Origin: Amoebophrya sp. A120
Taxonomy: Eukaryota > Protista > Dinoflagellata
Direction of reading: 5' to 3'
Assembly: GCA_905178155.1 (NCBI GenBank)
Contig: CAJINV010000005.1
Coordinates: 1,046,564-1,110,563 of the forward strand
DNA: 64,000 bases
Part shown: piece after piece, positions 3,032 through 49,260 of the stretch
How the letters are laid out: each line of letters begins with the position of its first letter
How positions within the stretch are numbered: the stretch's first letter is position 1
Made by a program: the position numbers and the translations under genes
Notes under the pieces: generated by a model
Databases searched by the model: none
Told to the model about the DNA's origin: nothing
What the model saw: only the letters and a program-made list of their open reading frames with translations

Positions 3032-5713
3032 ATGAAAACCGACGCAAGGGCGCACAAGATGAGAGCAGTGAAGCGACGCTTCAGTAATAAAGCGGAGGGC
3101 TTCGTGGCGCTCTGCAGTACCAGAAACCTGGCCGTTGCCGTGCACGCGAATGGGAGTGACGTTGGTGTTTCCGGAGCACAACCTCCACTGGGCGTAGAGA
3201 TTGTTCTCCCGGAGCCAGCGAAGGATGCTACGGAGCAGCCAGTGCAAAATAGCACTCAGCCGGCGGCGGTTCTTTCGCGCCTGCAGGCAGCGAGGAATGT
3301 TACGGCTCCGCTGGCAGGGGGGAATGTGACGGAACATGGGCTAACGACGAATGTGACTGACCAGCGACATGAAGAAGAGGCTGGACATTTCGGTTTATCG
3401 GGCGGATTGTGGTTTCCGGATGTGTGGGCGGCGATGGCAAACGTCTTCCTGCCGTCTCGAGCCAGCGAGGCTTCGAGATCTCGTAGTGCTTCAGCCTCCC
3501 CGCGCAAGAAGTATTACCTTCGAGGGAGCGCACACAGGGAAGCAGCGAGCGGAAGAGTTGCGGGTCACGACCACGACGGCCGGACGACAGATCCATCCTT
3601 CCTTGCTATCACCGAGGATTCCGACAGGGTAGTGCATGTGCCGGCTCCTTTTACCAGCGGCCGTAACGCTTCCCGGGCCCCTTCGGCAGTTGAAATCGGA
3701 AGGCAAAGCCTCTTGCAGGAGAACACAATGTCTGCAAAGCGTCGGTCCCCTGACTATGCATTGCAAATATGTCTGGGTCTGGTACACTGGAACGTGGAAC
3801 TTGTCATGCTAATTCTGGATAGTGCAGAATCAGAAATCTGTGTTTTATGATCAGCAAAAGGGGTCCACTTTTGAGCAAATTGACCTCATGCGTCATGAAA
3901 AACCTGCGTGACAAGTCTTGTAACTTGCCAAACCCAGACATATTTGCGTTTGATGCTGACAATTTTGATTTGGCTGCAGAGTTTCTCGCCCACCTAGAGG
4001 CGAACACACAAACACATGCTGAGTTTGCTGCAAAGGCAATTAAAAATTATGTTGGCAAAAAGTATAAGGAAAAGCGAGCTGATTGGGAAAAGTGGAGACG
4101 GAAGGTTGACGTTCCAGCACACGTTGTCCAGTGGGAAAAACAGTACAAGCAGAGACTGAGAAAAAAGCTTGATGAAATGAAAAAAAAACATAAAACGGCT
4201 TACGATCGATTTTTCCGCGAGCCTACCGACCACTCAAAATGGATAGGGAAATACACCCACTTCGCGAGACGGACGAGTGGTTCCCAGGTAATCGGAACGC
4301 CCACAGATACACTGGAATTACTCGAGCAGCCGCAGCCGTACGACTCCAGCTTCTTCCCTTGGGGCAGCAAGAATGCTTACCGCTCCGATCCTACAGGCCG
4401 GACAATTTCGTATAAGCAGGAGCCCGACGCCGCGGGGAGTTTTGGAGCAGTTCACAAGAATTTTAAAAGCAAGGTCCTGCGCAAGCGCCAGACAGTCGAC
4501 CAGGGCAGCGGCGAAAAAGCAGAATCGGAAGTAGAAGAAGTTAAAAATTCGCGATTTGATGGCGACAAAGATCGGTTCGACCAGGTCATCAAAATTTCGA
4601 AGCCGGGCACTGATGCCATGGCGCTTGATGAAATTGTGATCAACCTGTTCCTGTCACACGGAGACGCCGGGGGTTTGGAGCCCTGTGTTGCGCAGGTGCC
4701 GCATGTCGTGTTCTTTTTTGACGAATCTGGATCTCATAGCGTCGGTCTTTTCGTCGAGAAGGTAGAGACCGACGTCACGAAGCTAATCCGCGACAGGGAA
4801 GTACACCCGAATGCATATTTGGCCAGCTTCCACTACTGTTTGGACCAACTGGATAAGGCGGGCGTTGTTTTGAATGATTTGAAGCCGGAGAACATGGGCT
4901 GGGGGATGAAAACCAAAAGCGTGAAGTTCTTTGACTTCGGTATATCGACAATTCTTCGCGATGACAAACGAGTCGCCCTCGGTCTCAATCCAACCCGGAC
5001 ATCTCTTTTCGGTTATTGGCAAAGCTTGAACAAGAGACAAAAAGCGGGAACGCCAGCGTATATGAGCCCAGCATTGATGCGAGGCTGGTTGCCTTTGGGA
5101 TATTTCTATGGCCCGAAGTCCGACTGGTTCGCCGCCGGTCTGACGATGTTGGTGCACCTTGGCATACCGGTACGGAAAGCGCCAGACGAGGTAATTCATA
5201 TATTGCACTGTAATCTTGTTTGATAATTTATACACACTGAAAACCATATTGTTCGAAGGAGAAAGGTCATGTTGGTCAGTAGAGAACAAACTGGACAACC
5301 AAGGAATTAATTTCTTGCTGAAGTGATATAGAAAATTCTATATCGCAATTTTCCAGTGGCGGAGAGGGAGAAGAATAATAAGAGTGGAGCGGCCGATTGC
5401 TCTTTGTGACCGGCCCTTCATTTGGGAGTGCCGAGAAGAAGTGTATCATTTCCCTTCGCAGACGCTCGTGTCAGGCTGGAAGAAAAGAGTGAAACGGTTT
5501 CTTGATGAACAATATCCTTTTGTAGAGGTCGCTTTTCGAAACGCGATCATCAACCACTTGAGCAGCGCGTGGCGGCCCACGGATGATAAGTCAGTGGAAA
5601 ATCTAAGAAACATGGGTAAAGTAGCCGCGAATCAAGAAGAATCGATGGAGGAGCCGCTAAGGCTGCGGCGATCCCTACCGACAATTCCCGAAAATGAGGC
5701 CGAAGACGTTTGA
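3032..5713 (+). CDS. Divergent Ser/Thr protein kinase with long N-terminal extension; predicted exons 3032-3754, 3961-5190, 5357-5713
   Basis: Kinase motifs GSFGAVHK, VIKISK, LNDLKPEN, VKFFDFG, AGTPAYMSP, KSDWFAAG. Removing element 3755-3955 plus one TSD (206 nt) joins ORF 3032 to ORF 3847 in frame. GT-AG intron 5191-5356 joins ORF 5384 in frame. Confidence 0.8.
3755..3955. mobile_element. Introner-like TIR element, family A; TSD CTGAC
   Basis: Left end tatgcattgcaaatatgtctgggtctgg; right end ccaaacccagacatatttgcgtttgatg. ctgac at 3750-3754 and 3956-3960. Removal gives SPD|NFDLAAEF. Confidence 0.85.
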
Positions 5714-6730
5714 GGTTTATCAAATTATATGTGCTGGCCCTGTTCTTTTATCGTTCCGTATCCGTTTCCGTTCTTTATTCGTTTTTTTGCCCTCTCTCAA
5801 TGGTTGTCGACACTTCGTTCGTTTTTTTTTTGAAATAAATGCTTTGCCAATAAATTTGACTCGGCTCATCTACGGCGTTGCTTGCTTGGTGAGCGCGGTG
5901 AATGTGTGATAAAGTACAACAACATAGAAGATGAGCAGATGACTGTCTGTTGCATGCTCGCCGAAGGCCAAGATGGTTGCAGCTCCAACTGTTTGCAGAA
6001 TCAACTTTAAATTCGTCCTCGACAGTGATGTCCGGGACATGTGCGGCAAACTATCTTTTGCCTGCCGTAGCTCATGTGTTCGATCCTGATTCAGTGAAGC
6101 AATTCAATTCCTCCTATTGGAAAACACTGGAGGTGCGGGAGTTGGTGCCTGTGAGATGGAGCAGATAACTGGATTTTAGCTCCCAGAGGGCCATGTGATA
6201 TTTTGTGCCGTCGAATGATAGCAATACGGGTAGACCAGTAGATGTTTGGAGGTCCGCAGGACGGACTGCTTCGCAGTATTCAAAATCTAGAACGGAAGCG
6301 AGGATACTGAATAGAAGTTTGCGTCTTGAATTATTGTTTTCTGCTGGGTCTTCTTTTTTGGTAATGCGCCGGAGTGAAGCTACAGCTACAGGGTTCATGT
6401 AATGGCCGCGAGTGAGTGCTTCTTTCTAACGTAATATTTCTTTGCCGGGTGTGGCTTCTCGTGATTTCGCAGTTTTTTAAAGGGGGAATGACGTACCTAG
6501 TTTTTTTGTCCTGCGAGGCTTAAGGTATTCTAATTCTTGAGAGTTGGTGTGAGGGCGGAGATGGGTAGTTTGATTTTTTGACTTTTATACCGTTGCGACG
6601 AGGACTCTTACGCCCTCAAAGGCGCTGTCCGCGTTGCTTGTCAGAATTGTAGGAAGCAGTTAGAGTCATGAGTCAGCCTCAGCCCATCGAGATGATAATT
6701 CACAAATAAAACACAACCTCCTGCGACAAG

Positions 6731-9700
6731 ATGGGCTCCGACGAGGAGGAGGACAAGAAAAAGAAGAAGAAGAAGGACAAAAAGGAAAAGTCCAACTCCT
6801 CCAGCGAGGACGCCAACAACAAGAGCAGCACGGACAACGAGGGCGCGGACGACAAGAAGAAGAAAAAAAAGAAGAAGTCCAAGGACAAGTCGGAGGACGC
6901 GGTTGCTATATGCTCGTGGACGATTCCCTTTTCTCATCCTCATTTCAATCGCATGCGCAGCGAACACAAGGAACGCCTTAAGTGTAGTATCCGCATGACA
7001 AATCCGCAGGGGCATGTTCGGGTGTTCCGGGCAGTGCATAGTGCACCCCTCGGACCCCGCACCCCCCCGGGCTTTAGTAGCGCAGTCTGTTAAGCATGAC
7101 AAATCCGCACACAATTTTTTTATTGTTTCTTGGGATTCATTCGAAATTCGTCATGCGCAGAGTGCTTAAACGCAAGACGTGAGTTTGGTACTTCGCATTA
7201 TACAAACAAGTTGGAGCTGCATGCCGGAGTTGTCCACTTGCATACGGCAAAGAGGGCGACCATAAAGCCGACGACGCGGAAGACGGGGCGGCGGCGGACG
7301 ACGCGACACCCGCGGCAGCAGGGGAGGATCAGGCGGGGGCAGCAGGGGAGAAGGAGGCAGCAGCGGATGCGGGAGAAGCGGAGAAGAACGAAGCAGCCGG
7401 GGAACTACAAGAAGGCGCCGCGAAAGAGGACGGTGGACCAGAGGAACCACCCGCTGACGGGGATGCTAAGGCGGAGGGAGCAGAAGATGGTAGTAAAGCA
7501 GGAGCAGATCAGGCTGGGGATGATGCCGCAGTGGCAGGAGCAGATTCCGCAGGGAAGAAAGAGGAAGGAGAAGCTGGGACCGCAGAAGCAAAGCCTGCAG
7601 ATGGTGGGGGAAACGATGCTGAGACCAACGACGACGACAAGCCGTGCGGGGAAAAGCCACCTGGATCGGACGACGAGAAAAAGAATGCAGAATCCAGCTC
7701 AGGAGCCGACGAGATGAAAAAAGACGACACAGAGGGACAAACCAATCCGGGCGACAAGGATGCTGAAGCGGCAAAAATAGAATCAGAAGCGCCGTTGAAC
7801 TCCACGAATGTAGTCGCTGAAGAGACGACGAAATCCGACGACGAGCCGATTCAGCGACGAGACAAATTCGGGAACGTTCTGCCCGACAATGTTAAGGAAG
7901 AAGACCTGGAAGAGAAGCCCTCCTTCAGCCCGCGGTCCCCGAAGCCGGTCGCTGTCGAGCGCGGGTCCCCGCGACCCATGTCACCCGGCCGCTACAGCCG
8001 CGACCCGGAAGCCGGTGGCGTTGGCTACCGGTCGAGGGTTGCCGCGATTACCGGCAAGGACCCGGATCTGGAAGACCCGATTCTCGGCGGGAGCACCACC
8101 CAAGACCCGGAGGTCGCGAAGTTCCTCGAGGGCGTCAGCGCCGAAATCAATTTCACCGACAAGACCGTGAACGTGGAGCCCAGCAGCGCCTTCATGGGCA
8201 GCGGCGGGGGGATAAACAGCAAGTCCAGCGGCGAGCCGCCGATGATGGACTTTTTGCGGAACAGCAACCCAGCACCAGCCGGGGCGCTCGTCCCTGGCTT
8301 TGTTCCAAACTATCTCGCTGCCGCCGGCGCGCAACCCGTGATCACGTCCGCGCGGTCAAACAAGTTCGCAGACGTCGAGGTCGCGATGCCGCACAATCTG
8401 GTTCCCGGACAGCGGTACGACCAGGTCGAGCCCCGGGTGTACGACCACGATTATTCGCCGCAGAAGCACGCTCCGGAGAAGGCGCACTGGTCCCAGCAAT
8501 TCGTGAACAACCTGCGAAAATCCGACGAGGACCTGCTGAAACCTATCGTATTTAAAAATGTCCCCACACCATAGTTGTAATGCAAATCTGCATGCTGAAA
8601 ATGTTTCTCATGCGGAGCCCTATGAGAAGCATTTTCCAGTCGTGTTTTGGAATTTGTCATGCTCCAAGCAGCATGATGTACTAGATCTGTGATGCTGCTG
8701 CGCTAGGTCAAACAGCACTACACTACGAGTCCAAATTTGTCATGCAAAACAGCCAAACCTTGTGGATTTGTCTAGCCGATTCCCCATCTTGACTTTGGGG
8801 TGGGGACGTTTTTACATAGGATAAAACCCCTTCCCACCGGCGTGGCGGGCGCAGCGGCTGCGTCCTCCAGTGCGATGCACCACGCGAAGTCGCCGACACA
8901 ACTTCTGCTCGCCCCGGGGGCCGCGAGCGGCGCCGAAGCCCCGACGAAGTACGTGCTGAACCCGGCGTTTTTGCCGCTGGGCGACATGATCGACAGTGTC
9001 ATCCGGCAGTTCAAAAACTGGCTGCGGTTGAACGACCAAAAGCTCACCCGCGCGGAGGAAAAAGTCGTCGAGTCGATCGTGAAAGGGTTGTCGATGAAGC
9101 TGACCCAGGTGGAGTTTGAACCAATCTCCGACAAGAAGGCCCAACTCAACCACGTGTCGGCGGTCATGGGTACGGTCGGCGGCGTCCCCGCCGGCATGGG
9201 CGTCGGCATCACGGCACCGACGGTCGCGGCGAACGGCAAGAAGTTGCTCCCGCCGCTGGGCACGAACAACGGGGAGATCGAGAAGCGGAAAGAGGAACTG
9301 TCGCAAAAAATCGCGTCCCGCGAAATCATCCAGTGCTTGCGAAAACCCATGAAAAGAATGGAACCGAAGATCTACGAGCGGATCCGAAGGGGGTTAACGG
9401 AAACCTTTTGCTACTTCGCAAGGTCTATCCTGTGCAAAATGAAGGATGTGGCAGTGGTAAGGAGTCGAAATTTGCAGTGCAACGGTCCTACCTGTATGAA
9501 TACTTATTCGGTCCTACCTGCTACAATTTTCAGTTTGGTTCGTCCTGAAATTGAAATTTTTGCTGCAAAAATTCTTACTAGTACGATGCTTTTTCTTCTG
9601 CACTGCATACCGTCAGACGTGAACTACGACCCGTATTCCCCGGCAAAGTGGATTTCCGCCCGGCAGTGGGTGATGTTTGTTCGCTGCTTCGAAGTCTCCG

Positions 9701-12706: not shown

Positions 12707-15330
12707 ATGGCCACAAAGAACGTGCAATTTGAGGTGACGGGGAGCAAGCCTCCCGCCCCGAAGCCGATGAAGAAGCAATTGTGGTCTCTGAATCCGGACC
12801 GCTACGACATCGATACGGTCATCGGGACGGGGTCCTATGGTAAGTGGAAGTTTATGGATCCTGGATGAAGATCGCAAGATAGAATTTCTATGCGAGACAT
12901 TCCTCTGTCGTACTACAGGACCGTGCACCAAGAACAGTGGATGGAAGTAAGCCACAGACCACTGCCAAGAGCATATTTTTTCCCACATCCACAACAGGTC
13001 AAGTGTACGGTGCACAGGACAAGTTTACGGGGAAGAAGGTCGCGATAAAGCGGTCGAAGGACGTGTTTGGTGAACTGACGGACTGCAAGCGAATGCTGAG
13101 GGAAATCGCCATACTGAACCGGATCGAGCACAAAAACGTCGTGCACCTGCACGAGCTGTATCTGCTGCCGAACCCTGCAAATTTCACAGAGATCGCCCTG
13201 GTCTTGGAGCAGTGTCAGTTTGATCTAAAGAAGCTGTACTTATTTTTTTGCTGCTATAATGATAATTCTGTTTCATGTATGCTTTTTTCGGTTCTTTCGC
13301 ATGCTGTGATTGTGCCATGTGCATGTCCACCTTCGGGAGCATCTTTCTTGATTAGAGAAACTGAAGCGTTACGAGCCTGTTTCACCAAAATGCACTGGAT
13401 TTTGAATCAGATTCAAATCGACGGAGCAGCTGAATGAAGCAGAATCAAGGACCTTGTTCTACCGGATTTGCTGCGGCGTCAACTACCTCCACTCACAGGG
13501 CGTCTGGCACCGCGACCTGAAACCAGCAAATGTATCATTGAACGATTTTTGCGTGACATATTCTGATTGCATCACACACTATCATTTTTATTTTCCGCTT
13601 GAAAAGGGTACTGTATCGTGCATAAAGATAAAACGCATGTCGAAAACCTACAGATCCTTCTCAACACGGACTGCACGGTGAAAGTGTGCTATCGCAAGAA
13701 AAAAACTGTCTTAGTCTCAACTTGTAATGCCGCGGACATTCTTTTTTCCTTGAGACCACAGGCTTTTGTCATAACATGCTCGACATGCAAGTGCAACCTA
13801 AGTCATCTTTCATTCGTGTTTTCTCTTGCTTCTGGCGCATCATTTCGTCCTGAGCGAATTTGTATTGCCGATTCTGCAAAGGTTTGAGACTGAGACAGTT
13901 TTTTCCTGGGATATGTGCGACTTCGGGCTGGCCCGCGCGGTTGGTCAGGACAACATGTCCCTGCAGATGCTGGAGCAGGGGGCTCAGGATGCACACGTGA
14001 AGCGCGACCTCACCGCCCACGTGGTCACCCGGTGGTACCGCGCGCCGGAGCTGATTCTGCTGCACGAAAACTACACGGAAGCGATTGACGTGTGGAGTCT
14101 CGGGTGCATCCTGTTCGAGGTGATGCTCATGGAAAAGAGATACTGCGAGAAGGCAGACATTCCGAAGAAGCGCGTGCCCCTGTTCCCGGGGGCCTGCTGC
14201 TACCCACTCAGTCCGCGGAAGGACAAGAACGACAATCCGATCGAGGTATAATGGAGATCAGGAGCGATTTTTGCAGTTGCTGCATTTAAACCGTTGTACA
14301 TTTATTTTTTGTTGTGCATAAAGTTAAAGTAGCATACGGAAAAATTCATCTCAGGTCGACCGCAAGCACGTGGACCAGCTGCGCGTGATTTTTGAGCACA
14401 CTGGGACGCCCAGCAAAGCCGACTACGAGTTTTTGAGCAATCCCGACGCTAAGCACTACTTGAAGAAGCACTTTCCCTCAGAGACGGCGAAGAAGCCGAT
14501 CTGGTTTTACCACCGCTTAAACGGCATTGAACCGAAGCTGCACGATCTGCTGTCCAGGTAGAAAGGATAGTAAGTTGTAATTGACGAATTATAGTTGTTA
14601 TACAAAGTTTGCCTACAGAAGTAGAATGAGGAACGAAACGAAATCTGGTGTAGCTGTTCATGCAGGAGTAGATCAAACACTTCTACTTCCAGAAAAACCC
14701 AATAACTCCGCCAGGTTGCTCGTGTTCAACCCGCAGAAACGCATGTCCCTGATGGATTGCATGCACCACGATTTTCTCGCGAAAACGGTCCGCGAAGAGG
14801 AGGCCCGAGGGAACTTTTTGCCGGGCCGGGGGCCGCACCGGGGGGAGGACGTCGATATGATGGACATGAACGGGAACTGCATCGTGGAAAGCATCAAGTT
14901 GCCGTTTCCGGACCACTATCAAATGCAAAAATGTCTGGGTCTGGAAGAATGAAAGATTTATCATGCTTGTCTGGCATGACTGTTAACTCTGTGATGCTTA
15001 GGCGTAAAAAGATCCTCTTGCGTGTCATGCAAAAATGGAGCCTGTCATGCGGAATACGCAACATACAGGAGCTCAAAAACTTGTCATGCTTGGTCACCTA
15101 TATCAGTGAGCTCATTACTGATACAGTCGCATCACAAGTTTCCAGACCCAGACATATTTGCATTTGATAACCACCTGGAGATGAATGAACCGGAGTTGCG
15201 CCAGTACTACGTGTACGGATTGGAAGTGAGACTAAATTTCGTGGAACGCACAGGAGGCAAGCATCGCAGTAAAGGATCCATATTTGCAGTGTTGGAACGC
15301 GGTGGATTTAACTTGTCATGCGAGCAGTGA
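12707..15330 (+). CDS. Atypical alveolate-type MAP kinase (T-A-H activation motif; Plasmodium MAP-2-like); 3' end uncertain
   Basis: Spliced protein IGTGSYG|[16 protein letters not shown]|[12 protein letters not shown]|[35 protein letters not shown] introns 12840-12997, 13236-13410, 13532-13653, 14246-14354, 14558-14714. TIR elements at 13690 and 14917. Confidence 0.9.
13690..13913. mobile_element. Introner-like TIR element, family C; TSD TGTGC; splits the kinase KVC|DFG
   Basis: Left tatcgcaagaaaaaaactgtcttagtctcaa; right ttgagactgagacagttttttcctgggata. tgtgc at 13685-13689 and 13914-13918. Confidence 0.95.
14917..15169. mobile_element. Introner-like TIR element, family A; TSD ACCAC
   Basis: Left tatcaaatgcaaaaatgtctgggtctggaa; right ttccagacccagacatatttgcatttgata. 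accac at 14912-14916 and 15170-15174. Removing 258 nt gives FPDH|[11 protein letters not shown]. Confidence 0.95.
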
Positions 15331-16492: not shown

Positions 16493-19171
16493 ATGACGTC
16501 CCCCGTGTCGTCCCCTACATCTTCCGGTCAGGGAAATGCCAGTAGCGGTGTGTTGGAAAAGAAAGCGCAAGGAGCTGCCTCGTCTTCCACGGACGTCGCT
16601 GCGGTATACTGTTCTTTAGACTTTTCTCACTTTGCTTGCCACGCTACCTAACATTCTATTCAATTTTCATATTGCATTGTCGATGTCTTGTTCAAGTGAA
16701 GGTGGTCGAATAAATCGTTTTCATCTCAAGTTTGGTCTTTCCATCGACATCGTTCCTTTCCAGGCGCCATCCGCTGCCGCAGCTCCGTCCGGGGGTTCAT
16801 CGAAGTCGGACAGCAAAGACTACTACGGGGCGTATGGTCAGGAGCAGGACTTTTACGACTACAACACGGGCGGAGATCATGATTACAACTACGACTATCA
16901 CGGACAAGCAGGAGCAGGGGCTGCTGGTCCGGCACACGACCAGCAGCACGACGAGGCCTACGACCCCAACTACGACTACAGCCAGGACTACAGCAACAGC
17001 AACGTGGCGTCTTCCACGTCCTACCACGACTACAACAATTACTACCCGCCGACCAGTGCTTCCGGGGAGCACAACTACTACGCGATCCCGATCGCAATGG
17101 AGCCCTACGCGATTTTGGAAGAAGCCTCGCAAAAAATCAGCTACAACACGGACTGGGCTGGGCGGGAAATCCGGAAGCAGATGGCGCAGTGCCGGGTTCG
17201 CCTGCAGGAACACGTGATCCACCGGAGGCGACAGGTGTCCGACGCGGACACGGACAGCGAGGACGATGAAAACGTATCGCAAGAAAAAAGTGTTACAGTT
17301 ACACATTGTGTTGCAGGCCACGCAAGACAGACAAGCTCTGTCATGCCGGATATGCATAGGAGCCTCGTTTCATAGGTGTTTTCCCGTAGGATTTCTGCAT
17401 TGCAAATTTTCTCTCTCATGCAAAGAAATTTGCGTTGCTGAATTCACTACAAATGTGTAACTGTAACACTTTTTTCGTGGGATAAAACGAGGCGTTTTAC
17501 GACTACCGCCAGCATTTGAACCAGCATTTGCAGGAGGCTTGGACGAAAAAGCAGCAGGAACAACTGGAAAAAGATTTGGTTCCCGTGTTTGAGTTCTTGG
17601 ATTCTTTCCACTTAGTGGGGCAGCAACTGGAGTTCATCGCGTCGCAAGTCTCGCAAACCTCCATGGCTCTCGCGGAAAACGTGACCAACTGGTGCGCGGC
17701 GGAGTACGGCTGGACCAAGCACGTGCAGACGTTGAACATGAAAAGCAGCGACTTGCGGCACAAACAGGCCATCGCCCAGGCGAACAACAATCGAGTCAAG
17801 TATAAATGAATGTAGTTTTTGTGCTTCCATGATGGTACACGTTCTTTGGATAAAAATGGCAGAATTTCGAAGTTGTAGAATAAGTTCTTCTCTGTAATTT
17901 TTACGAAGTAAAAATGCGTTGTAGTTCGTGCATGGCACAATAAAGCTGCCTATGAGACCACTTAAAACACCGACCTCCACGGCAATATCAGGCAGCAGAT
18001 GCTCCTTATCGGGGAGGAGCAGAAGCCGTCTTGGTTTTCGCGGAAGGGGAAGTCGCTTGAAAAGCTCGCTGAGGACCAGCATCGACACCAGCAGGCCATC
18101 GCGGATTTTGAGGAGCAGCAGGAGAGTCTGGAAACGGTGAAATCGAAGTTGATTCCGCAGGTCCATGAAGACCTGGAGAAGAAGCGGAAGGAGATTTTGC
18201 AGGCGGTGGACGACCTGTTTCTCAAAGCGAACTTCGTCGTCGGCTACAAGACGGACCCGAAGGAGTTCCGGAAAACCACGCTCGGGGAAGACAAAACCGC
18301 GGCCGGAGGAAGTGCCGGCACAGCAGGTTTTTCGGCGGATGAGTTGGGTCCGCCGCTGTCGTCCAAGCAGTCGCTCAGTGCTAGCGACGAAAAAGGTATG
18401 AACGTGAAGCAGGCGAGTAAAGTGACGCCGGTAGACAACGTGCGCATGGCGGATGAAGTGGCGGTTCCAGCTGAGCACCACGCGGAGAACGAAAATGATG
18501 TGTCTTCAAAGGAGCAAACCAGTAGAAAAGATGTGGATGGAAGTGCCAATAAGGGTGGAAAACCTCCTGGTTCTACCAGTATGTTGAAAGGCTTTGGAAA
18601 AGGAAAACCGGAGGCGCCCCCGAGTAGTTTTCATCCGAGCGCAGGAGCTGCGGATGCGGAAAGTGCGAAGCGCCCGGTGGCGTTTCCGAGCAGGACTGGT
18701 CCCGCTGCTGAGGCAGACAAACCCGCGGCTCCCCCGGTCGCAGCCGCGGCGAATGTGGAAACCCCAAAGCGGCCGGGCGCGCCACCACCGACGACCGAGA
18801 AAGAGATATCGAAAGAAGAAGGTGTAAGCGAAACCACGTCTGTCACACCCAGCGTAGCCGCGACCGTGAGCACCTCAACAGCGGCTACGTCCGCTGTGGT
18901 GTATGAACCCCCGGCACCGCCACCACCAGCACCAGCTGCTGTTGCGCAAGAGACGAAAAGTACTTCCGAAGAGGAGATTGTCGTCGCGGAACCGGAACGA
19001 GGCAGTGCTGCAGGGGGACAAGACCAATTGCCGGGCGCGGTGGTGACTGAAGCAACTACGGGAAAGAAGGCCTCGAAAGGGAAGAAGAAGAAAGGGAAAA
19101 ACGGAGGCTCAGCTGCGTCTTCCTCATCGTCGTCCAGGATTCTGGAGGCGGCAAACAATCCTTTGGCTTAG
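16493..19171 (+). CDS. Hypothetical protein (Tyr/Asp-rich N-terminal part, coiled-coil middle, Ala/Pro/Lys-rich tail); predicted exons 16493-16603, 16764-17274, 17490-17799, 17992-19171
   Basis: GT-AG introns 16604-16763 and 17800-17991, plus the element at 17275, join ORFs 16632, 17516 and 17999 in frame. Confidence 0.7.
17275..17484. mobile_element. Introner-like TIR element, family C-related; TSD AAACG
   Basis: Left tatcgcaagaaaaaagtgttacagttacacatt; right aatgtgtaactgtaacacttttttcgtgggata. aaacg at 17270-17274 and 17485-17489. Removing 215 nt gives DEN|EAFYDY. Confidence 0.93.
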
Positions 19172-30274: not shown

Positions 30275-33200
30275 ATGGAGTTGAATCTGGTGAAAGCGCA
30301 ACCCTTGCGGTCGGTGTACGTGCGGGCGGATGTGTATGGAAGCGTCAGGTTTGAAATCGACAAAGTTGAAATGATTTGTCATGCATACAATGGATACCAG
30401 TTGGAAGCCCAATTTCCAAGCGGCGCATGACAAATTTTCGGAGCTCTGGAATCCAATTTGTCATGCTGTTTGGGCACAGAAGACTGCTTTTGTCATGCTC
30501 CTCTAGCAGCTCTATCCCAAACCCTAAATAGGCTCACAATCTGCCTCATTTGCCATCCCGGCAAGACAGGCATTCCATGCCTTGCATTTTAGGCATGAGA
30601 AAGCATTTCAACTTTGACGATTTCAATCCTGACAGGTCCATAATGTGAATGCGTTCGAGGCGGTGATCGACCCCAGCATCCGCGAGGTGTACAGCGACAA
30701 CAAGTTTCACACCTCCACAAACGCGAAGATGGTGGAACAATACATTCTGCAGTCGGGGTATCCAAGAAAAAAACGTTGTTAGTGTAAATTTGTGATGCGC
30801 AACATGCAAAGTAATTGCGTCTGTCATGCTTGGCATGCATCGTAGGGTCCATTAAAGGGCGTTTTCACGTACTATCTGCGCATGACAGGTTTTTGCTGTC
30901 ATGCCAGACAAATTTGTAATGCTGTTCCTCCAAAGAAGTTACACCTACAATGTTTTTTTCTTGGATACGGGGGAGCAGAAGGGGTTCCAGACCCGGGACA
31001 AGGAAATCCTGTGGAACATGGAGATCAACACGTTTCAAGTGCGCCACGAGGTGGCCAAGGAGTGGTCCTTTTTCGTCAGCGTCATGGGCCTGTCGCACTC
31101 GCAGAAGGTGGCGGCCGACCACCTGCAGTTGGTCAACAGGTGGAGCGGCCGGAAAATCATAGTGATAATCGCCGACCACGGGTTCCGGGGTCATGGGTAC
31201 AGCAGAGTACCTGTTTTTTCATGCACTTTGACTTTCTCTCGCATAGGGTTAGGGATCCGATTGCATGGATCCGTGACTCCTTTTTCTCCAAATGGCGCGG
31301 TGTCATTTTTCCTGCCTCTTTTAACATTTTCGCTTCGTTTCCTAAAGACAAAAATTCACTTCACCGCAGCGCCCACGAGTTTTTCCAGATAGCGATTGCG
31401 TTGCATACGCAGCTGGGCGCCAACGTGCTGATGTTCGAATCTCCACCGGAATTCGAGCGGAATGTGCGGGACTACGTGGAGATTATGCCCTCCATCATCC
31501 TGAAGATCCTGGATTTCTACCGCATCCACAAATTTGCCGCGTTCGGCCTCGGGTACGGGGGCGCAGTGGCGTTTCGGCTGTACATGCTGGCCCCGGTTCG
31601 GTTTTCCTCCCAGGCACACGTGATGATCAACCCCAGGTTCCTATCTTGAGTAAAAACGTACCCACACCAGAGTCAGGATGGGGATTTTGCAACACAAAAC
31701 TAGGAGTTTTGTGAGTCACGCATGACAAGTTTCAGTCCGTAAGGTAGTGCAAGTTAGCAAGGAAAGCCGCATCACAAATCGACCTGCTGATCCTGTTTAC
31801 AGCATTACAAGTTCCCAAACACGATTGAAAATGCCTGTCATGGGGTTGCGCATCACAAATGTTCCTGTCATGGCAAATCTGCATGACAACTATGGTGTGG
31901 GGACGTTTTTACACAGGATAGTTCCCAGAGGGCGTGGAGCTCCCGGAGCGGTTCGACATCGTGAAAACGATGAAGCGGGTCGGGTTCGAACCCAGCCAGT
32001 TTTGGCTGATCCGGTTGCAGCGGAAACTCGATCAGGACGGGCTACCGATAAAATCCACCAGAATAACGCACGAAAAAAGAAAGATATCGGACAAGGTGAG
32101 AAAGAGCCGTAGTATCTATGGATAAGTAGCTACGGACTAGTCAACATACAGGTGAACGTGGACATCACTATGATTTGCATTAGTTTCCACCATGGCAGCT
32201 CGTTTGTCTTACACTTGCTTTTGATGATCTCTAGTACTGCTTTCAGCAGTGGAAAAATTCGAAGGACCACAAAAACGTCGTCAATTGATTCAAACAACAG
32301 ATTCTCGAAGACAGTTTCCAGAGCCTGCTTCAGCGCGTTATGCAGGAGATCAAGGGGTTGAAGAAGCGCTCCCCCGACGAGGTGAGGACGAAAAATGGAG
32401 CTTTTTTCGACGAGGTAATTTTTTCCCAGGACATCCACTACAAAAACATGCACTGGTTCCGGATGTTCCCCCACGACCCCCAGACGTTGTTGATCCTCTT
32501 TTCCCGAAAAATGACCAAGTGCCTGATCACCTACTTTGTCGCGCAACGGTTTCCCTTCCAGCACGAGGTGATCCCCATGCCGGGGTCGGAGCTCGCGGCG
32601 GTGCAGGACAAGAAGGCACAGGAGGCGGAGGAGGAGGAGGACAGCCCCGGACAAAAGAAGGGAAAGAAGAAGCGCAAAAACGCGAACGCATCCTTGCGAG
32701 AGATGGGGATCGGGGTCGGGGCGGCCGGCACGACCAGTGCGGGGTACTGTCGTGGCTTTTTTTTGGTGCCCTTAATGTCACTGTGAATCAGAATCTGGTG
32801 GATCATGATCTGCATGGCAAGTAGAATTCTTTCTGATGCTCACAATTTCAAACAGCTCACCGTCCGTCTCTTCCCCCGCAATGAGTCTTGTCAAGGGTCA
32901 GGATGGACAAAACATAACCGCCAGCAGCGGTTCGGGTTTTGAAAATAATCTGAAAAAGGAGATAAAAGCTGGTGAGGCCGCAACATCCAATGCCGCGGGG
33001 GACGCACAAGCGGCGGGTGAAAATAGCAAAGCCGCGGAAGGTAGTACCAGTTTAACAGAGGCGCAACAGCCAACCCAGCCAGCAGAGGGAGACCCAGCTG
33101 CATCCGCACCGGCCAAGGAAACCCTGCTCCCGCCCGTGGGGGAGTCACCAAAAGTTAAAGAAGCAACACCCGCGGGGGGCTTGGGTTTGATAGACGAGGG

Positions 33201-35735
33201 CAGTGAGTTGATACCTCTGGAGGGCGGGGGGACGATTTCGTTGGCGGAGTTGCAGAGCCAGCAAGCGGCGGCTGCCGGGGAGGCGGATACGCTGATGTCC
33301 CTGTTTGGCGGGGAGCCAGGATTGTCTCAGCAGTCGGATGACGTTCCGAACAAGCTGCAGGTACTGATTTAGGTTTTTCGTGATCGGTCATAGTACCATT
33401 TCCTCTCCAGTGTGTACATCAACTTGTTGAACAAGAGCGAGTTTCATTTGTTCCAACACGACGTAAGTATATCATTACATCACTTCAGTCCTCCCTTCCC
33501 GCGATCGGAGAAAATTCCCCAGGCCACCAGCGACCCGGTAGTTCCCAATCCCAGCAGCGTCCCGGCAGTTCTCAATCCCAGCAAAGACCGGGCAGTGCAC
33601 AATCACAAAAGGACCGCCCGGGGTCCTCCCAGTCGCAAACCGCGAAGAACACGACGTCGACAATAATGCCCACCGCGGCGGAGGAGGAGCAGTCGAAGAA
33701 GGAGTTTGAAGCAAAGGCCGAGGAGGCGAAGGCCGAATTGCGAAGGCTCGCGGCGGAGGACGCCCGGAAACAGGAGTCCACGGTGAACTTCGGGTTGATC
33801 CGCGAAATGGACGCGATCGTGAACCGGCCCGAGGAACTGGGGTACAACTGCTTTGGCGAACTGGCCAGTCTCGCGAAAATGCGGAAGGCGCAGGTGGGCC
33901 TGCCCGACCCGAACAAGCGGCCGGTGTTGATCGGGAAGGAGATCAACCCGCTGCGCAAGCTCCGGATGGAGGAACGGCAGAACGAGATCATGCGGAAAAT
34001 GGCCGTGGGCGGGCTGGACGCCGAGGCGGAGGAGAAAAAGGAGCGGCAACGCGCGGTGAAGTACTCCGTGGACTTGTCGGCGAAGAACCTGGCGATCTTG
34101 GAACGGGAAAACGTATCAAATGCAAATATGTCTGGGTCTGGAAAGTTGGAACTTGTAATGCTGGCGTTACATTCCTGCGAAATCTGTATTGCGTGACCAA
34201 CAAAAGTGGCAGCCTCTCACGTCATACAAAAACGCAGTCTCTCATGCGGAGTTCGTATGAGAAAGCGTTCTGTACACTTGTCATGCGTTCTAGCATAAAG
34301 GTGTCTTTTCATCATGCACATTTTAGCATCACAAAGTTCCAGACCCAGACATTTTTGCAATCCATAAAACGAAGATCTGTACAACAAGAAGCTGTTGGAG
34401 ATCGCGCAATATCCTGTGCAAAAGTATCGTACTCGTAGTAATTGCATTTATGCATTACAAGTCTTTGTTTCAAGGTAAGTCAGCATTACAAATGCAATTC
34501 TTGTAATGCTGGGCGAGTCTGTAATGCAATTTATACTAGTGCGATGCTTTTGCATTGCATACGCAACAGGAGGAGGCACAGCTGGAAAAGGTCCGGAGAC
34601 ACGACCGCCGCGCGATGGCCAGCTCCTTCACCGCGGGGCCGGGGCGGTCAATCGCGATGTCCTCCACGGTAAAAGGGGCGAGCCGGTTCGGCACGACGAC
34701 CGCCGCGGATCAAGGCAAGAAGATGCAGGCCCTGAAGGACCTGCTCGCGCAGCCCGCCGTGGCGCCGGCCGAGGTGCTCGTCGGCCCGGAGGGCGCGGCG
34801 CCGGCCATCGCGGGGATCATACCGGGGGGAAGGCAGCGGGTGGAGTTGGCGGCCCAGGTGCCGGTCAACGTGGATTCGTTCGAAGACGAGAACGCGCTGG
34901 CGGAGGTGTACCGCAGTCGGTTGGCGGACGCGCAGCGAGCCACGGACAAGGAGGAGACGGACAAGGCAAAAAAGATACGGCACGAGCAACAACACACGAC
35001 AAGGTATCTATTAACGTCAGAATCGCTTTTTTTTTCGTTCTGTCGTGGTCCAGAAGCAGATGTCATGACATGAGAGCGTACGGATCCGAAATAACATATT
35101 TTGAATAAATTTGAATCGCCCGCCGCCACTATGCATCAACAGCAGCAGTCGCTATGTCTACGATCAGAACCTCCTTTGATCCAAATTTCTACGCGCCATT
35201 TGCAAGAGCGGGGCGCGTGTCCGCACATTCTTGTGAGGATTTCTTTTCAAAAAATACGCCCTGGCTCATCTAGTGGACGCAAAAGCGAAACAATTCTGAC
35301 CCTGTACTCAGCGGGTGCTTCTTCGATCCAATTTGTGGAGCACTCGTTCTCTTTGGGGTCAACAGCATACAATACACATTCATCTTTCTGCTTCTGCACT
35401 AAATCACAGCGAAGGCGCTCAATGAGTGCTCATGTTCTGGAATGTAATACCGAAAGACAAAGAAACAACAAAAGAAGTAGGTCGTGCGCAAGATAGAAAT
35501 CCAAATCCCTGAAGATCATGCTACTATACCAAATAACAGGGAAATGCGTCTGGTCGCGCTGATGCAGCAGCGGAAGGAGATGGAGGGGGTGAAGAAACTC
35601 TACGACGAGCAGCAGCGCGCAGTCAAGTACGGCGACCCAGAAACCCGGAAGATGGAGGCGGTGCTGCAAATGTCGCGGGAGGAATTCGAAAACGACCAGG
35701 CAAAGCTGGAAGCGAGCTTGACGCGGCGACGGTAA
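30275..35735 (+). CDS. Multi-exon protein with N-terminal alpha/beta-hydrolase-like domain (GLGYGG elbow), RPGSSQSQ repeats and coiled-coil C-terminus
   Basis: Frame continuous after removing elements 30335, 30759, 31642, 34114, 34410 (each with one TSD) and GT-AG introns 31197-31246, 32096-32300, 32744-32855, 33361-33488, 35004-35539. KFAAFGLGYGGAVAF..HVMINP resembles the hydrolase nucleophile-elbow region. Confidence 0.7.
30335..30642. mobile_element. Introner-like TIR element, family E; TSD ATGTG
   Basis: Left tatggaagcgtcaggtttgaaatcgacaaagttgaaatg; reverse complement of right end tatggacctgtcaggattgaaatcgtcaaagttgaaatg. atgtg at 30330-30334 and 30643-30647. Removal gives RADV|NAFEAV. 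Confidence 0.93.
30759..30967. mobile_element. Introner-like TIR element, family C-related; TSD CGGGG
   Basis: Left tatccaagaaaaaacgttgttagtgtaa; right ttacacctacaatgtttttttcttggata. cgggg at 30754-30758 and 30968-30972. Removal gives ILQSG|EQKGF. Confidence 0.92.
31642..31920. mobile_element. Introner-like TIR element, family B (opposite orientation to 8544 and 48523); TSD GTTCC
   Basis: Left tatcttgagtaaaaacgtacccacaccagagtc; right tatggtgtggggacgtttttacacaggata. gttcc at 31637-31641 and 31921-31925. Removal gives NPRF|PEGVELP. Confidence 0.95.
33531..33636 (+). repeat. Coding tandem repeat (about 27-nt unit) encoding RPGS(S/A)QSQ four times
   Basis: cgacccggtagttcccaatcccagcag / cgtcccggcagttctcaatcccagcaa / agaccgggcagtgcacaatcacaaaag / cgcccggggtcctcccagtcg. 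Confidence 0.8.
34114..34366. mobile_element. Introner-like TIR element, family A; TSD AAACG
   Basis: Left tatcaaatgcaaatatgtctgggtctggaa; right ttccagacccagacatttttgcaatccata. aaacg at 34109-34113 and 34367-34371. Removal gives EREN|EDLYNK. Confidence 0.94.
34410..34561. mobile_element. Introner-like TIR element, family D; TSD CGCAA
   Basis: Left tatcctgtgcaaaagtatcgtactcgtagtaattgcatt; reverse complement of right end tatgcaatgcaaaagcatcgcactagtataaattgcatt. cgcaa at 34405-34409 and 34562-34566. Removal gives LEIAQ|QEEAQ. Confidence 0.9.
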
Positions 35736-37257: not shown

Positions 37258-38107
37258 TTGTGAAAAATGCGAGAGGAAAGAACTGAGTAGAAACTCGAGC
37301 TCGTCGTGGCAATGGAATAGGACTGATGTATGAGAATGAAGTTGTAGTGTGGAATCGAAAGACAGTGACAAGCTTTATCTTCGTTCTCGTGGTCGAATTA
37401 TCCACTCTCATCGTCGTGTTAGTACAGACAAAGAGTGTTCCTGTTCCAGAGCGCAAAAAGCCAGCTATTCGTCATTATTCACACTGTGAATTTACAGAGA
37501 CGCAGAAGTCTTGCAAAATCCCGTACTAGTTCGAGCTCGTAGAAAGCGTCTATTCAGTAACTTTTGCTTCTTTAACTTTAGCTTTTGCTTTGTCGTCGAC
37601 AGGTAGACCGAAGAAATCCGTAGAACTTGAAGGTTAAAAAGATCCGTTTCGTGGCACGGCAAACATAAGAGAAACAGAAGAAAAACCTCTTCACGTGGGT
37701 CGTCGTAATCCTGTTTCTGTTAGTCAACCTGGTCCTGTTTTCTCCTGCTTGCTTATAGAAGTCCATAGATTTTCATTTTTCAAAATTTGAATGTAGTACG
37801 TTTCCACTCTCACGAATAGCTTTGGCCACAACTTTTCGTCGACCTAGCTTTATTACAGGGAGCATTTTAAGGACGAAAGTACGTTAGCCTGCTCGACCAT
37901 TGTCCGTAAAAACGACTAATTGTTTAAGAATGAGAGCAAGTTACTAACGCTCTTCTAGGTCATGCTCGTCTAGCCCAAAGAAAACCAATCCGATTTTTTC
38001 CTTGATTTCCAAAAAAATAATAGCAAGAGGAAGTACGAAAAAGTACTCGCCGAGAGGGAGAGAGAAAAGGAAGTTTCAACGTATTCACAACGCACCAACA
38101 ATCCAAA

Positions 38108-40437
38108 ATGCCGAAGACTAAGGCTCAGGCGATGAAGGTCGTGGCCATGAAGAAGGCCGAGAAGCCGGCCCCGGCGAAGAAATCCTCCGGCAAGGGAAAG
38201 GGAAAGAAGGTACTTCGTGCTTTTACATTGTAAGGAAATGTGATGCAAGGCGCCCGCAATTTTTGGAGTTGTCATGCCTGTTCTGCATGTAGTCCTAGAC
38301 GCGAGACGATAATAAGTTTATGCCGTGATTTCTGGACACGAACCCGCCTGTGAAATTGTGGCTCAACAGGTTGTTTCCGTGGAGAAGAAGAAGAAGGAGG
38401 CGAAGGTCGCTGTGATCGACCCCTGGGTGGAAAAAATCACGAAAGTGGAGGAGGCGTTGCTGACCAAGTGCGAACTGCCCCCAAACGCGACGGATATTTT
38501 GGTGCGCTGCTGCACCCCGGCTTTTTCTGACAATGTCGAGGACCGCCATGAGTGCCAGACCGGTATTGAAATGTTCTTTGATCAGCAGTGTGATGTCGAC
38601 GTCGTGCATCAAAATTGCTTGCGTACAGGTACCTTCATCTTCAACATTCATCATATGTTTCATCAAAAAAATGTTCTTGACATCAAAACCACAACAGCCG
38701 CTACGGAGCAAATCGGAAAGGCTTTGGAGGAAATCGAGTCCCGGTTGAAGAGCGCTACTGCGGAATTCGAAAACATCACCGCCTCTGCGGACGATGTACT
38801 TACTTGATTTTTTTGAGAGTAGATAATGAATTTGCAGATTGATTTTGAGCGCACGAAAAACAAAAATGGATATGATGTTCTCCCTTCAGGTGCGCTCCGG
38901 GTTAGCTGCGGACCTCGAGAAGACCGAGGCTGACATCACGGCAAAGACCGAGGCGAAGGAGGCATTGGAAGGCGAGGAGGAGAAAGCTTCGGTCGCGTTT
39001 TCCGACGCGGAAAAAGCCGTTGCGGCCTGGAAGAAGGAGCTGAAGGGGTTCGAGAAGGAAAAGTCGGCCAAGACCGACGCCCTGGGGAAGGTGACGACTG
39101 GCAAGACGGACATCTTCGACAAGTTGGTGAGCGAGAAACCCGCCTCGGGTAAAGAGGGAAAGCGCGACATCGAGAAGCTGAAGGGGTTCTTGAAGCAGGC
39201 GGGAATTGTCGGAGCCTTCGAGACGTCCGTGGTGCAGGTCATCATCTCGCCGGAAGACGATGCGGAGTTCACCACCATGATGCTGACCCGTGCGGGCGAC
39301 TTCTTCACGAAGTTCACGACCACGACGGAAGAGGAAATTGCGAGTTTCGATGCCAAGATCTCGGAAGTCACCGAAAGCCTCGTCGGAGTACAGTTCTATG
39401 ACTTCTATATGGTTGAAAGCGTGCATCAAGATACACGTAGGTTTTTAATGTGTGCTAAGAATTTTGTCTTTTTCATCCGGGACGTGAATAATCACCAAAA
39501 AAATACGCAATTTCAGCTCGAGGAGACCGTCAGCTCCGCCAAAGCGGCCATGGACGAGGCCATGAAGAGTGTCGAGGATGCGACCGCGGCTATCGCGGAG
39601 TTGAAGAAGGCCAAGAAGACTTGCACGGTGAGAAAATGCTGTTGTCAACACAGACGAGCAATTTATATGTGATGTCTTTCGCACCCATGCCAAGATTAAA
39701 GACTTCTGCATTTTGATGTCATTATTTCCAATTCGAAAATCACTAATAACCTGCTGCAGGCCGCGTTGAAGACCCACGACACCAAGGTGGAGAATGCTGC
39801 TGAGGCGAAGAAGGAGGCTCTGGCCGCGGAGGAGGAGTTTGCCACCGTGTTGGGCGTGTTCGGCGAATTGAAGGCCCGCACGGCCGTGGTCGACACGGAC
39901 ACCATGGAGAGCGGTATCGAGGCGGAGGCCGTGGTGGACTCCAGTGCCACCGGTGCGGAGGATGTCGAGATGGAAGATGCTGGTGAGGAGGAGGCCGCCC
40001 CGGCCGAGGAAGAGGCCCCGATGGAGGAGGAGGAGGTACTTAGTACCATTGCGTAAAAATGAAAAAGGGCTCATGACCGCATTTCTATGGGTTTCACCGG
40101 CTGGATATGCATTTTTCCGATTTTGAATTTCAATAGCTCGTTAAGTACGCAATCCTCTTCAACTGCCTCGGGCCAACGTCAAAAAATAACGCAAAAACAG
40201 GCCGCTGAGGCTGCGCCAGCGGAGGTGGAGATGGAAGAGGCTCCGGTCGTTGAGGAACCCGCTGCCCCGGTCGTGGAGGAACCCGCGGCTGCCCCGGTCG
40301 TGGAGGAACCCGTGGTCCCGGAGGCCCCGGCCGCCCCGGCGGCGGTCCCGCAGTACGAGCAGCAGTACCAGGGCTACCAGCAGTACGACCAGGGTGCCTG
40401 GAACCAGCAGCAGTATGACAACCAGTACTGGCAGTAA
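38108..40437 (+). CDS. Coiled-coil protein with basic AMK-containing N-terminus and acidic, YQQ-rich C-terminus; 7 predicted exons
   Basis: Approximate GT-AG introns 38210-38369, 38563-38697, 38797-38889, 39388-39516, 39628-39759, 40036-40200 join the ORF blocks. N-terminus MPKTKAQAMKVVAMKKAEKPAPAKK. Confidence 0.75.
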
Positions 40438-47800: not shown

Positions 47801-49260
47801 CAGGAAACCAGGCCGCGCGAGCGACCAGGGTCCGCCGGAAGCAATATGCGAGCGAAATTGCGATACACCCACCGGCAAATCCGGGATGAGCTGATGCAGC
47901 AGTACGAAAAGGAGAAGGAGGAGAAGGAAAGACAGAACCATGCGAAAGCCGCTGCGGGCAGCAATGTAGTAGAACAGGCACATCAAACGCCCGGAAATCC
48001 GTACGCGCCGATTTCCGGGGCGAGGGCGAATGCGAACCTGAATCCGAACCCCTCTACAACCGGTAGCAGTACCCCACACGCGACTCGACCACGGCCGCAG
48101 TCCGCCTTCGGAAACCGAAACTTCATCCGGGAGAACCGGGAGATCGGGACAATTTTGAAGAACGCGAGACGGCGAATTCAGGGGGAAATGGAAGACGAAG
48201 AAAACGTCGAGTCGCACTTTTTCGTCAACGATGAGCTGCAGAGACGCTGGTTTGGAACTGGATCCGGTGGAGCGGGAGGAGTAGATCAAGACTACGATCA
48301 TGTCGTTGGAGCTGCTGCTGCTGCAGCAGGACCTTCTGCCGCAACCGTGAAAGCACAGCACGTGGCTTCAAAGCCGAGCTTCGTAGCACCACCGGCGACC
48401 ACATCCCGGCCGCAGGGGAACAAGAATGTGAAAGTTCAGTTAACAACAGAGCAGATCCACGCCGATTTTGAGGCGCAGTTTGCGAAGTCCACGTTTGTCG
48501 AGGGAGAACACTCGCTATCGCCTATCCTGAGTAAAAACGTACCCGCACCAGAGTTGTAATGTAGATTTGCAAAGACAGGAAGACTTGTAATGCGCATCAC
48601 CATGAGAGCCATTTTCAATCGTGTTTTGGAATTTGTGATGCTGTGAACAGGATGAGCCGATGAATCTGTGATGCGGCTGCACTTGCTAACCTGCACTACA
48701 CTGCAGAGTGCAACTTGTCATGCGTGACTCACAAAACTCCTAGGTTTGTGCTGCAAAATCCCCATCCTGACTCTGGTGTGGGTACGTTTTTACTCAGGAT
48801 ATCGCCGGAAAAGGAAAGCCGAGCTGTACGCAATCATGGAGCGGATTTTGGAAGGGAGCTGATCGAGATGACTTCGGTCGACGACAAGGAGGAATTTTCA
48901 CCTCAGGACAAATCGGTTGTGGAACAGGAAGATAGGGCTTGGGCGGCTATCAAATGTAAAAACGTCTGGGTCTGGAAGAATGCAACTTGTGATGCTGCAT
49001 TTGGATTCCAAAAAAATCTGTATTACATGAGTACCAAAGGGAATGCAATTTTTGCTACGCTGAGAAGGCATCTGTCATGCGGAATAGGCATCCAGAAGCG
49101 TTCAAAAAATCTGTATTACTAGGGTATGCATCGCAGAGACAGACATCATGGCTCATGCAAAACGTGCATGACAAACCTCGCATTCATCCAGACCCAGACA
49201 TTTTTACATTTGATAGCGGCCGGACTGCTGCAAAAGTTTTATCGGGAACAGCACCAGTAA
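41866..49260 (+). CDS. J-domain (DnaJ) protein with Cys/His cluster (FAM221-like) and a very long low-complexity RPxSA-rich tail
   Basis: J-domain ILGF..VQKAFKRLALVFHPDK..FQQIVAARDLL. Cys/His cluster WECSAC..HICACGY..SH..CADSGCENFEY..CPTCGHAQACH. GT-AG introns 42744-42873 and 43537-43674. Elements 48523 and 48948. Stop TAA 49258-49260. Confidence 0.8.
48523..48801. mobile_element. Introner-like TIR element, family B; TSD TCGCC
   Basis: Left tatcctgagtaaaaacgtacccgcaccagagt; right actctggtgtgggtacgtttttactcaggata. tcgcc at 48518-48522 and 48802-48806. Removal gives HSLSP|EKESR. Confidence 0.95.
48948..49215. mobile_element. Introner-like TIR element, family A; TSD GCGGC
   Basis: Left tatcaaatgtaaaaacgtctgggtctgga; right tccagacccagacatttttacatttgata. 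gcggc at 48943-48947 and 49216-49220. Removal gives RAWAA|GLLQKFYREQHQ*. Confidence 0.94.

Follow-up and report, generated by a model that had tools for sequence, protein, structure and literature searches.

The stretch analysed here, called the window, comprises 64,000 nucleotides of the dinoflagellate Amoebophrya sp. A120 (contig CAJINV010000005.1, positions 1,046,564 to 1,110,563). It is eukaryotic and its genes are co-oriented, with 36 of 36 coding segments on the + strand; the Pfam domains in these genes are E2 ubiquitin-conjugating, kinase, DnaJ, Vps54 and FG-nucleoporin. Dispersed through it are introners, short non-coding elements with terminal inverted repeats (TIRs) and target site duplications (TSDs), as in miniature inverted-repeat transposable elements (MITEs). 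A120 introners have been described as non-canonical introns with inverted and direct repeats, the inverted repeat consisting of TAT, seven less conserved nucleotides and at least AAA (Farhat et al. 2021, PMC7789003). The subject of this analysis is a short motif inside these elements, TGTVATGC (V is A, C or G), that is common to their different families.

TGTVATGC occurs 52 times on the two strands of the window, against a mean of 5.49 and a maximum of 12 in 100 dinucleotide shuffles. Forty-four of these sites lie within 12 intact elements (3,012 bp, 14.6 per kb), 3 in element remnants (479 bp) and 5 across the other 60.5 kb (0.08 per kb). The motif shared across element families was first noticed in a sequence-only reading of the window, and the observation is confirmed. 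Each of the 9-mers listed there is present at its element, with 5, 4, 5, 4 and 4 sites in the copies of families A (14917), B (8544), C (30759), D (34410) and E (30335), and 2 each in the element at 6903/6907 and in the GT-AG intron 38210-38369. The features of the window are collected in Table 1.

Table 1. Introners, element remnants and motif-bearing introns of the window
Feature	Positions	Strand	Details
Decayed family-A introner	3755..3955	.	right terminal ATA altered; TSD CTGAC; motif 3802
Decayed element, cluster 7 relative	6907..7245	.	motifs 6993 and 7094 (minus strand)
Family-B introner	8544..8823	+	TSD AAACC; 4 exact motifs, all forward; pair 8655/8688, 33 bp
Old D-like element	9426..9609	+	exact motif absent; 189 nt (element + 5) apparently removed from RNA
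RNA-supported GT-AG intron	13532..13653	+	single exact motif 13569, minus strand
C-group introner in protein-kinase gene	13690..13913	.	TSD TGTGC; spliced, joint 13684>13914; motif 13723
Family-A introner	14917..15169	+	TSD ACCAC; 5 exact motifs; pair 14990/15023, 33 bp
Lone motif, unique non-element DNA	15314..15321	+	
Family-C introner	17275..17484	-	TSD AAACG; motif 17339
Family-A introner, reverse orientation	23254..23550	-	TSD CCTAT; 5 exact motifs; (ATG)n run
Family-E introner	30335..30642	-	TSD ATGTG; 4 exact motifs; pair 30459/30491, 32 bp
Family-C introner	30759..30967	-	TSD CGGGG; spliced, joint 30753>30968; 5 motifs; pair 30791/30822, 31 bp
Family-B introner, reverse orientation	31642..31920	-	TSD GTTCC; 5/5 motifs antisense on RNA; spliced, joint 31636>31921; pairs 33 and 31 bp
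Family-A introner	34114..34366	+	TSD AAACG; 3 exact motifs
Family-D introner	34410..34561	+	TSD CGCAA; 4 motifs; pair 34452/34483, 31 bp
RNA-supported GT-AG intron	38210..38369	+	direct pair 38239/38270, 31 bp; TIR/element homology not detected
Family-B introner	48523..48801	+	TSD TCGCC; 4 forward motifs; pair 48634/48667, 33 bp
Family-A introner	48948..49215	+	TSD GCGGC; 3 exact motifs

A second sample consists of at least 168 loci fetched with the family-A TIR pattern, 167 of which come from one other assembly series; the remaining record, L147, was dropped. Chosen around family-A matches, the loci are a biased sample of about 460 kb with 335 element copies. They have 36 of 6,397 sampled 31-mers in common with the window, every one inside elements. 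The detector used ends and TSD, not the motif, and allowed TAT, TAC and TAG; its 355 candidates were reduced to 347 by dropping 3 overlaps and 5 elements longer than 400 bp, and interior clustering of 345 elements gave 28 clusters, several singleton TIR families being merged into larger ones. The elements are mostly 100-350 bp long, start with TAT and end with ATA (342 of the 355 detected), and have TIRs of about 25-30 bp, of which positions 11-14 are 75-85% A. The 5-bp TSDs are mildly GC-rich and perfect in 275 of 363 profile-found copies, which were located independently of the TSD. TAT(C/G) ends and 5-bp TSDs are common to all families. Summed contig depth (run X5) in element bins is hundreds to thousands of times that of the flanks, a figure that is not a copy number.

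In the 167 loci the motif is found 1,017 times in 81.5 kb of intact elements. It is present in exact form in 324 of 335 elements, or 336 of 347 with those of the window added, and in 151 of 159 locus elements outside family A, the family used to fetch the loci. The motif had been judged by eye to be rare in exons, and coding-like DNA (202.6 kb of window and loci) shows no excess, with 11 sites observed and about 10 expected; the coding and noncoding labels are those of a Markov classifier built for this analysis, and profile hits at E<=1e-3 were masked first. Refinement by expectation maximization extends the site to RYYTGTVWTGC, which is wider and more degenerate than TGTVATGC and not palindromic. 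It comes out alike when derived separately in each of the 9 largest clusters. TCTCATGC is a frequent variant; families B (8605-8635) and A (34230-34257) have in common a palindromic stretch of about 25 nt built on it, which folds in family B as a strong internal hairpin. CpG decay is ruled out as a source of the motif, CG-containing variants being rare (14 and 16 vs 573) and CpG hypermutability not being observed. A C-5 cytosine DNA methylase domain lies at L022:1-1083, yet the elements show no such hypermutability. The site may also resemble paired-domain and RBFOX-like sites.

The main unit of the motif is a direct pair whose spacing peaks at 31-33 bp. Such a pair is present in 293 of 345 elements and in 17 of 28 clusters, whereas none of 22 other 3-bp windows (13 to 81) reaches more than 4 clusters. 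When the elements are grouped by their ends (by eye), 10 of 11 end-groups have the pair, a number that 0 of 10^6 null draws reach. Position relative to the termini is also structured. Fourteen of 39 modal inward-pointing sites up to 60 bp from an end lie at 31-34 bp and 11 at 42-43 bp, and outward-pointing sites show little phasing. Scored against the motif, TIR positions 4-14 (the terminal box, at offset 3) look like a degenerate outward copy, with a mean of -5.3 vs -16.7 for interior background and scores above zero in 27% vs 4%; among 200 column shuffles one reaches this level. The TAT-N7-AAA box of the published description may therefore be TAT followed by a worn GCATBACAAA. In family D, its relatives and cluster 12 the motif-like terminal copy stands 30-33 bp from the next outward site.

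The motif is conserved along element lineages. In six families the rate of substitution at motif positions, relative to other interior bases, is 0.17 for internal branches, 0.33-0.39 for the longer tips and 0.51 for the shortest; the tips include unsampled parent lineages, and tip ratios are therefore lowered under either model of when selection acts. Trinucleotide-matched motif ratios from young to old copies are 0.50, 0.31, 0.30 and 0.29, compared with 0.80 to 0.33 for the TIRs, conservation being stronger in the motif than in the TIRs. A separate comparison gave a similar trend. A clock for what happens after insertion is provided by the TSD, in which mismatches arise only post-insertion. 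Copies with 1-2 mismatches (76, vs 252 perfect) have an extra divergence of 0.023 at motif positions and 0.033 elsewhere, a ratio of 0.68 (bootstrap 95% confidence interval 0.31-1.58) that lies above the internal-branch value of 0.17. Private motif divergence is 0.036 vs a per-site TSD mismatch of 0.055 over two copies. Decay of the motif after insertion is compatible with neutrality, and moderate host selection is also allowed.

The families had been called otherwise unrelated, and their interiors barely align once the motif is masked. Interior blastn among the 9 largest TIR families yields up to 344 bits within and at most 46 bits across families, and with the motif masked up to 272 and at most 37 bits (three family pairs). 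The cross-family matches cover 40-60 nt of motif-spacer-motif, and shuffled queries give none. The description needs qualifying in that TAT(C/G) ends, 5-bp TSDs and slightly alike spacers (identity between clusters 0.371 vs 0.313 shuffled) are shared, so a remote common ancestor of the families is possible. Such ancestry would be the whole explanation if a single element, built from a two-site module of about 45 bp, had been duplicated and reshuffled and nothing bound the motif today, for which the shared ends and TSDs, the extent of the cross-family matches and the spacer likeness could all be cited. This is quite unlikely. A core cannot stay intact without selection when the sequence around it has diverged beyond alignment; substitution at motif positions runs at 0.17-0.5 of the rate seen in the other interior bases, more slowly than in the TIRs, and the spacer is constant in length at 31-33 while its sequence varies. 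Common ancestry of the families can coexist with binding of the motif by a mobilising protein.

The sequence-only reading had proposed one trans-acting factor for all families, such as a transposase DNA-binding domain or a splicing or chromatin factor. Evidence on splicing comes from contigs of one sample, whose RNA status is guessed, yet which skip 15 listed GT-AG introns; the raw RNA runs X8-X10 leave the region uncovered, and the stretch is absent from all runs recorded as RNA. In these contigs elements leave transcripts as mostly non-GT-AG introns at the three joints of Table 1, with 5 ambiguous bases at the joints. Two contigs have 883 nt between window positions 8538 and 10069, where the genome has 1,530 nt. 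The difference equals the B copy at 8544 with its TSD (285), the element 9426-9609 plus 5 nt (189) and a GT-AG intron (173), so that, by length arithmetic in one case with no listed joint, both the all-sense B copy and the motif-free element are apparently removed. The latter does not have GT-AG ends, and the unspliced sequence also keeps an open frame. Family B copies in both orientations are thus lost from RNA, 31642 with antisense sites by a joint and 8544 with sense sites by arithmetic, and the terminal TIR stem folds in both (z -6.1 and -5.4). Where gene direction can be inferred (193 of 345 elements), 314 sites are sense and 271 antisense, 34 elements are sense-only and 26 antisense-only, and in no family does the split differ from 50:50 at p<0.05 (lowest p 0.064).

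These results bear on whether the motif is an RNA signal recognised by a splicing factor that excises non-canonical introns, the genome being reported as lacking U1. The elements do leave RNA, U1 was not detected in A120 according to PMC7789003, the sense strand is slightly in excess and residual noncoding sites are 9 sense vs 3 antisense (29 undetermined). The motif is not palindromic, yet copy 31642 is spliced with antisense sites only and copy 8544 apparently with sense sites only; antisense-only elements are found beside sense-only ones, the TIR stem forms in either orientation of B, and sites three helical turns apart suit duplex DNA. A splicing factor acting on RNA is a poor fit, since strand bias is lacking, both B orientations are removed and 9426-9609 is apparently removed with no exact motif, and this role is very improbable. 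The motif is best read as a double-stranded DNA site.

Of the factors proposed earlier, one acting at the DNA level on the side of transposition fits best. The same motif in the 9 largest clusters, the fixed spacing across end-groups and a conservation above that of the TIRs all argue for a single factor, and RYYTGTVWTGC is, by a modest preference, the duplex-DNA binding site of one shared mobilising protein, either a transposase or a DNA-binding helper. Two sites three helical turns apart would face the same side of the helix and could be bound cooperatively. Sites 31-34 or 42-43 bp (three or four turns) inside the terminus, together with the motif-like TAT+7+AAA box, would allow assembly of an end complex, which would cut at TAT...ATA and insert with a 5-bp stagger. 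This would leave families free to diverge in TIR body and interior as long as the common key is retained. New copies would be founded only by copies with intact sites, and after insertion the sites would decay near-neutrally. What directs the elements' removal from RNA would be the TIR hairpin or the boundaries, not the motif.

A precedent is Emigrant, an Arabidopsis MITE whose TIRs and, cooperatively, subterminal motifs are bound by Lemi1 proteins (PMC1636448). It likewise comprises non-autonomous TIR elements with internal repeats. Emigrant is one pogo-like family with a known partner, whereas here one motif runs through many TIR families at a fixed spacing of three turns, and the elements have 5-bp TSDs and are spliced. 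Other systems are alike in part. Among integrase-like DNA transposons, IS3EU/GingerRoot elements have TA..TA termini, as here, and a TSD of usually 6 bp instead of 5; Ginger2 has TSDs of 4-5 bp (PMC10045372). A coding element with an integrase-like DDE transposase of the IS3EU/GingerRoot type was not found among 228 open reading frames (ORFs). Transib, ProtoRAG and recombination signal sequences (RSS) have 5-bp GC-biased TSDs and combine a terminal element with an inner binding element across a length-critical spacer (PMC8289069), which is an analogy only. Their CAC heptamer-like terminus is TAT here, and the motif sites, unlike theirs, are repeated through the element in either orientation.

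The published features of A120 introners, namely a TAT-starting inverted repeat with an A-stretch, a direct repeat at the boundary, removal from RNA and high copy number, are all found in the present elements. Their clusters match in length the A120 introner dataset (about 107, 149, 209, 234, 252-260, 278, 305 and 320 bp; 50 of 58 A120 rows, PMC12130899). Farhat et al. give direct repeats of 3-5 nt and argue against general transposase-mediated mobilisation (PMC7789003), and one A120 family in Gozashti et al. (2025) has a 5-bp TSD and TA/TA termini (PMC12130899). In the accessible parts of these two accounts the internal motif, the 31-33 bp pairing and a uniform 5-bp TSD do not appear. Literature searches gave no title or abstract that describes an internal motif in A120 introners, though unseen figures, unsearched supplements and subscription papers might mention one; the motif strings, searched as whole words, returned only three unrelated papers. 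The paired-motif cis-architecture is apparently unreported within this known element class.

Several observations weigh against a shared mobilising protein. Pfam detects no transposase or integrase domain in the 228 ORFs (203 from the loci, 24 of 30 from the window and one kinase exon), which represent about 0.5 Mb only, and no transposase was found in A120 by Farhat et al. (PMC7789003). End-group G is without the pair (1/12). The clusters of end distances are not independent, and the Rayleigh period is bounded only to about 9.5-12 bp. Orientation relative to the ends, measured along with spacing as had been proposed, is not fixed, family B sites all pointing in one direction and D sites outward. 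The A-run alone may give part of the terminal-box score. The youngest copies are already at a motif ratio of 0.50, under neutrality, the interval of the TSD clock is broad, and extra motif divergence is not seen in 32 copies whose terminal TAT or ATA is broken (the interval is uninformative). Outside elements, 9 noncoding pairs at 30-35 bp compare with 0-1 in Markov simulations, and each excess hit is accompanied by about 0.11 pairs, vs 0.027 under neutral decay simulated at 30% divergence with neither extinct families nor end deletions in the model.

The last points lead to the DNA outside the elements, where noncoding-like sequence holds 48 motif sites vs about 20 expected. TTGTCATG and TGTCATGC rank first and second among over-represented 8-mers in 188 kb of this DNA (42 vs 10.9 and 33 vs 7.2). 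It contains 24 direct pairs, of which 9 have a spacing of 30-35 bp and 5 of these 31-33 bp (p=0.001); several of the 9 sit in putative GT-AG introns in which neither a TIR nor homology can be detected. A host protein that binds double-stranded DNA, such as an AP2-type chromatin or transcription factor, would account for this if it bound the pair to the benefit of the host or of the inserted copy, for instance by marking the intron to be removed during transcription, so that selection on the motif continues after insertion. The over-represented 8-mers, the spacing and intron location of the residual pairs, their excess over simulated neutral decay and the ratio of 0.50 in the youngest copies are in its favour; a loose similarity to TGCATGCA, the site of the apicomplexan AP2-EXP, whose domain dimerises (PMC6631176), is a lead only. 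On the other side, the exact motif is present in only 2 of 15 RNA-supported GT-AG introns of the window, 9426-9609 is apparently still removed with no exact copy, and the TSD clock is compatible with neutral decay. Simulated neutrally decayed elements reproduce the single-site excess (0.24-0.6 per kb), and the residual pairs include spacings of 34-35 bp, as expected from indel drift. Such a factor does not need sites clustered at fixed distances from the termini. A host DNA-binding factor is unlikely, with a small but real share of the probability.

With 2 of 15 RNA-supported GT-AG introns carrying it, the motif is not a general intron signal. The intron 38210-38369 does contain it, as had been reported, in the form of a direct pair. 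The further suggestion that motif-bearing canonical introns are old elements is plausible, and reliable residual homology was not obtained in 13 motif-bearing stretches: after motif masking 3 scored higher than all 12 shuffles, two of these with a margin of at most 1 point, and motif-free control introns scored as high. A resemblance to family A seen by eye at the end of an intron in L033 gained no support from motif-masked alignment. Eleven of the 15 RNA-supported canonical introns (window 12840-40200) begin with GTA(C/T). A G ahead of a TAT...ATA element yields GTAT, and TSDs giving both GT and AG occur in 17 of 193 elements; a route from introner to canonical intron through TSDs that supply GT and AG is possible.

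The mobilising protein itself was sought in the window and loci. Among the five long elements and the 228 ORFs no autonomous partner with the same ends was found. The long elements are short elements with inserts, and contain no transposase-like ORF by eye (three frames were scanned with Pfam). One of them, L025:505-1608, is a family-E element of 1,104 bp in which a GC-rich insert with internal repeats takes the place of the right part, and two scanned frames of it have no Pfam match. The family-A TIR pattern has no match in viral contigs. Of 120 viral loci matching the paired-motif pattern none is an introner; 3 family-profile hits are all below 15 bits, and the loci are coding repeats or other arrays. 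Viral contigs L207, L238 and L244 carry TGTGATGC/TGTAATGC arrays in steps of 11-13 bp, which are not introners. ARAGORN found no tRNA at these three arrays, which may be reminiscent of integrase arm-type sites.

Independent of family and fixed in geometry, the site offers a concrete bait with which to identify the protein, and the motif is a sequence signature for locating autonomous elements and very old insertions. How tens of thousands of introners move in a genome with no transposase found, and how their non-canonical introns are removed, are questions raised by the cited papers. The present results suggest that a single mobilising system serves many of the families defined by their TIRs. 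In a bolder version, given only an outside chance, the paired site would be a genome-wide DNA tag, and one protein would mobilise all TAT...ATA introners and, once domesticated, mark introns on the DNA for removal, in an organism reportedly without U1 snRNA. If true, this would account for the survival of intact pairs in unique GT-AG introns from which the element ends have gone.

Some further features accompany the elements and genes. Inserts nested in introners (L034:632-1465, L038:5307-5763 and window 23438) terminate in (ATC)n/(ATG)n runs, those of L034 and L038 having a short internal word in common; with their trinucleotide-run tail they are possibly retroposons. An Rfam scan of 29500-39000 gave a single sub-threshold chance match. 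Three very long intron-free frames, at 49954-57138 (2,395 codons), 43634-48556 (1,641) and 26071-29163 (1,031), have no Pfam match and no introner, though their surroundings are introner-dense. A 62-bp duplication of a gene 3' end, 84% identical, lies in intergenic DNA (23792-23853 and 25700-25761).

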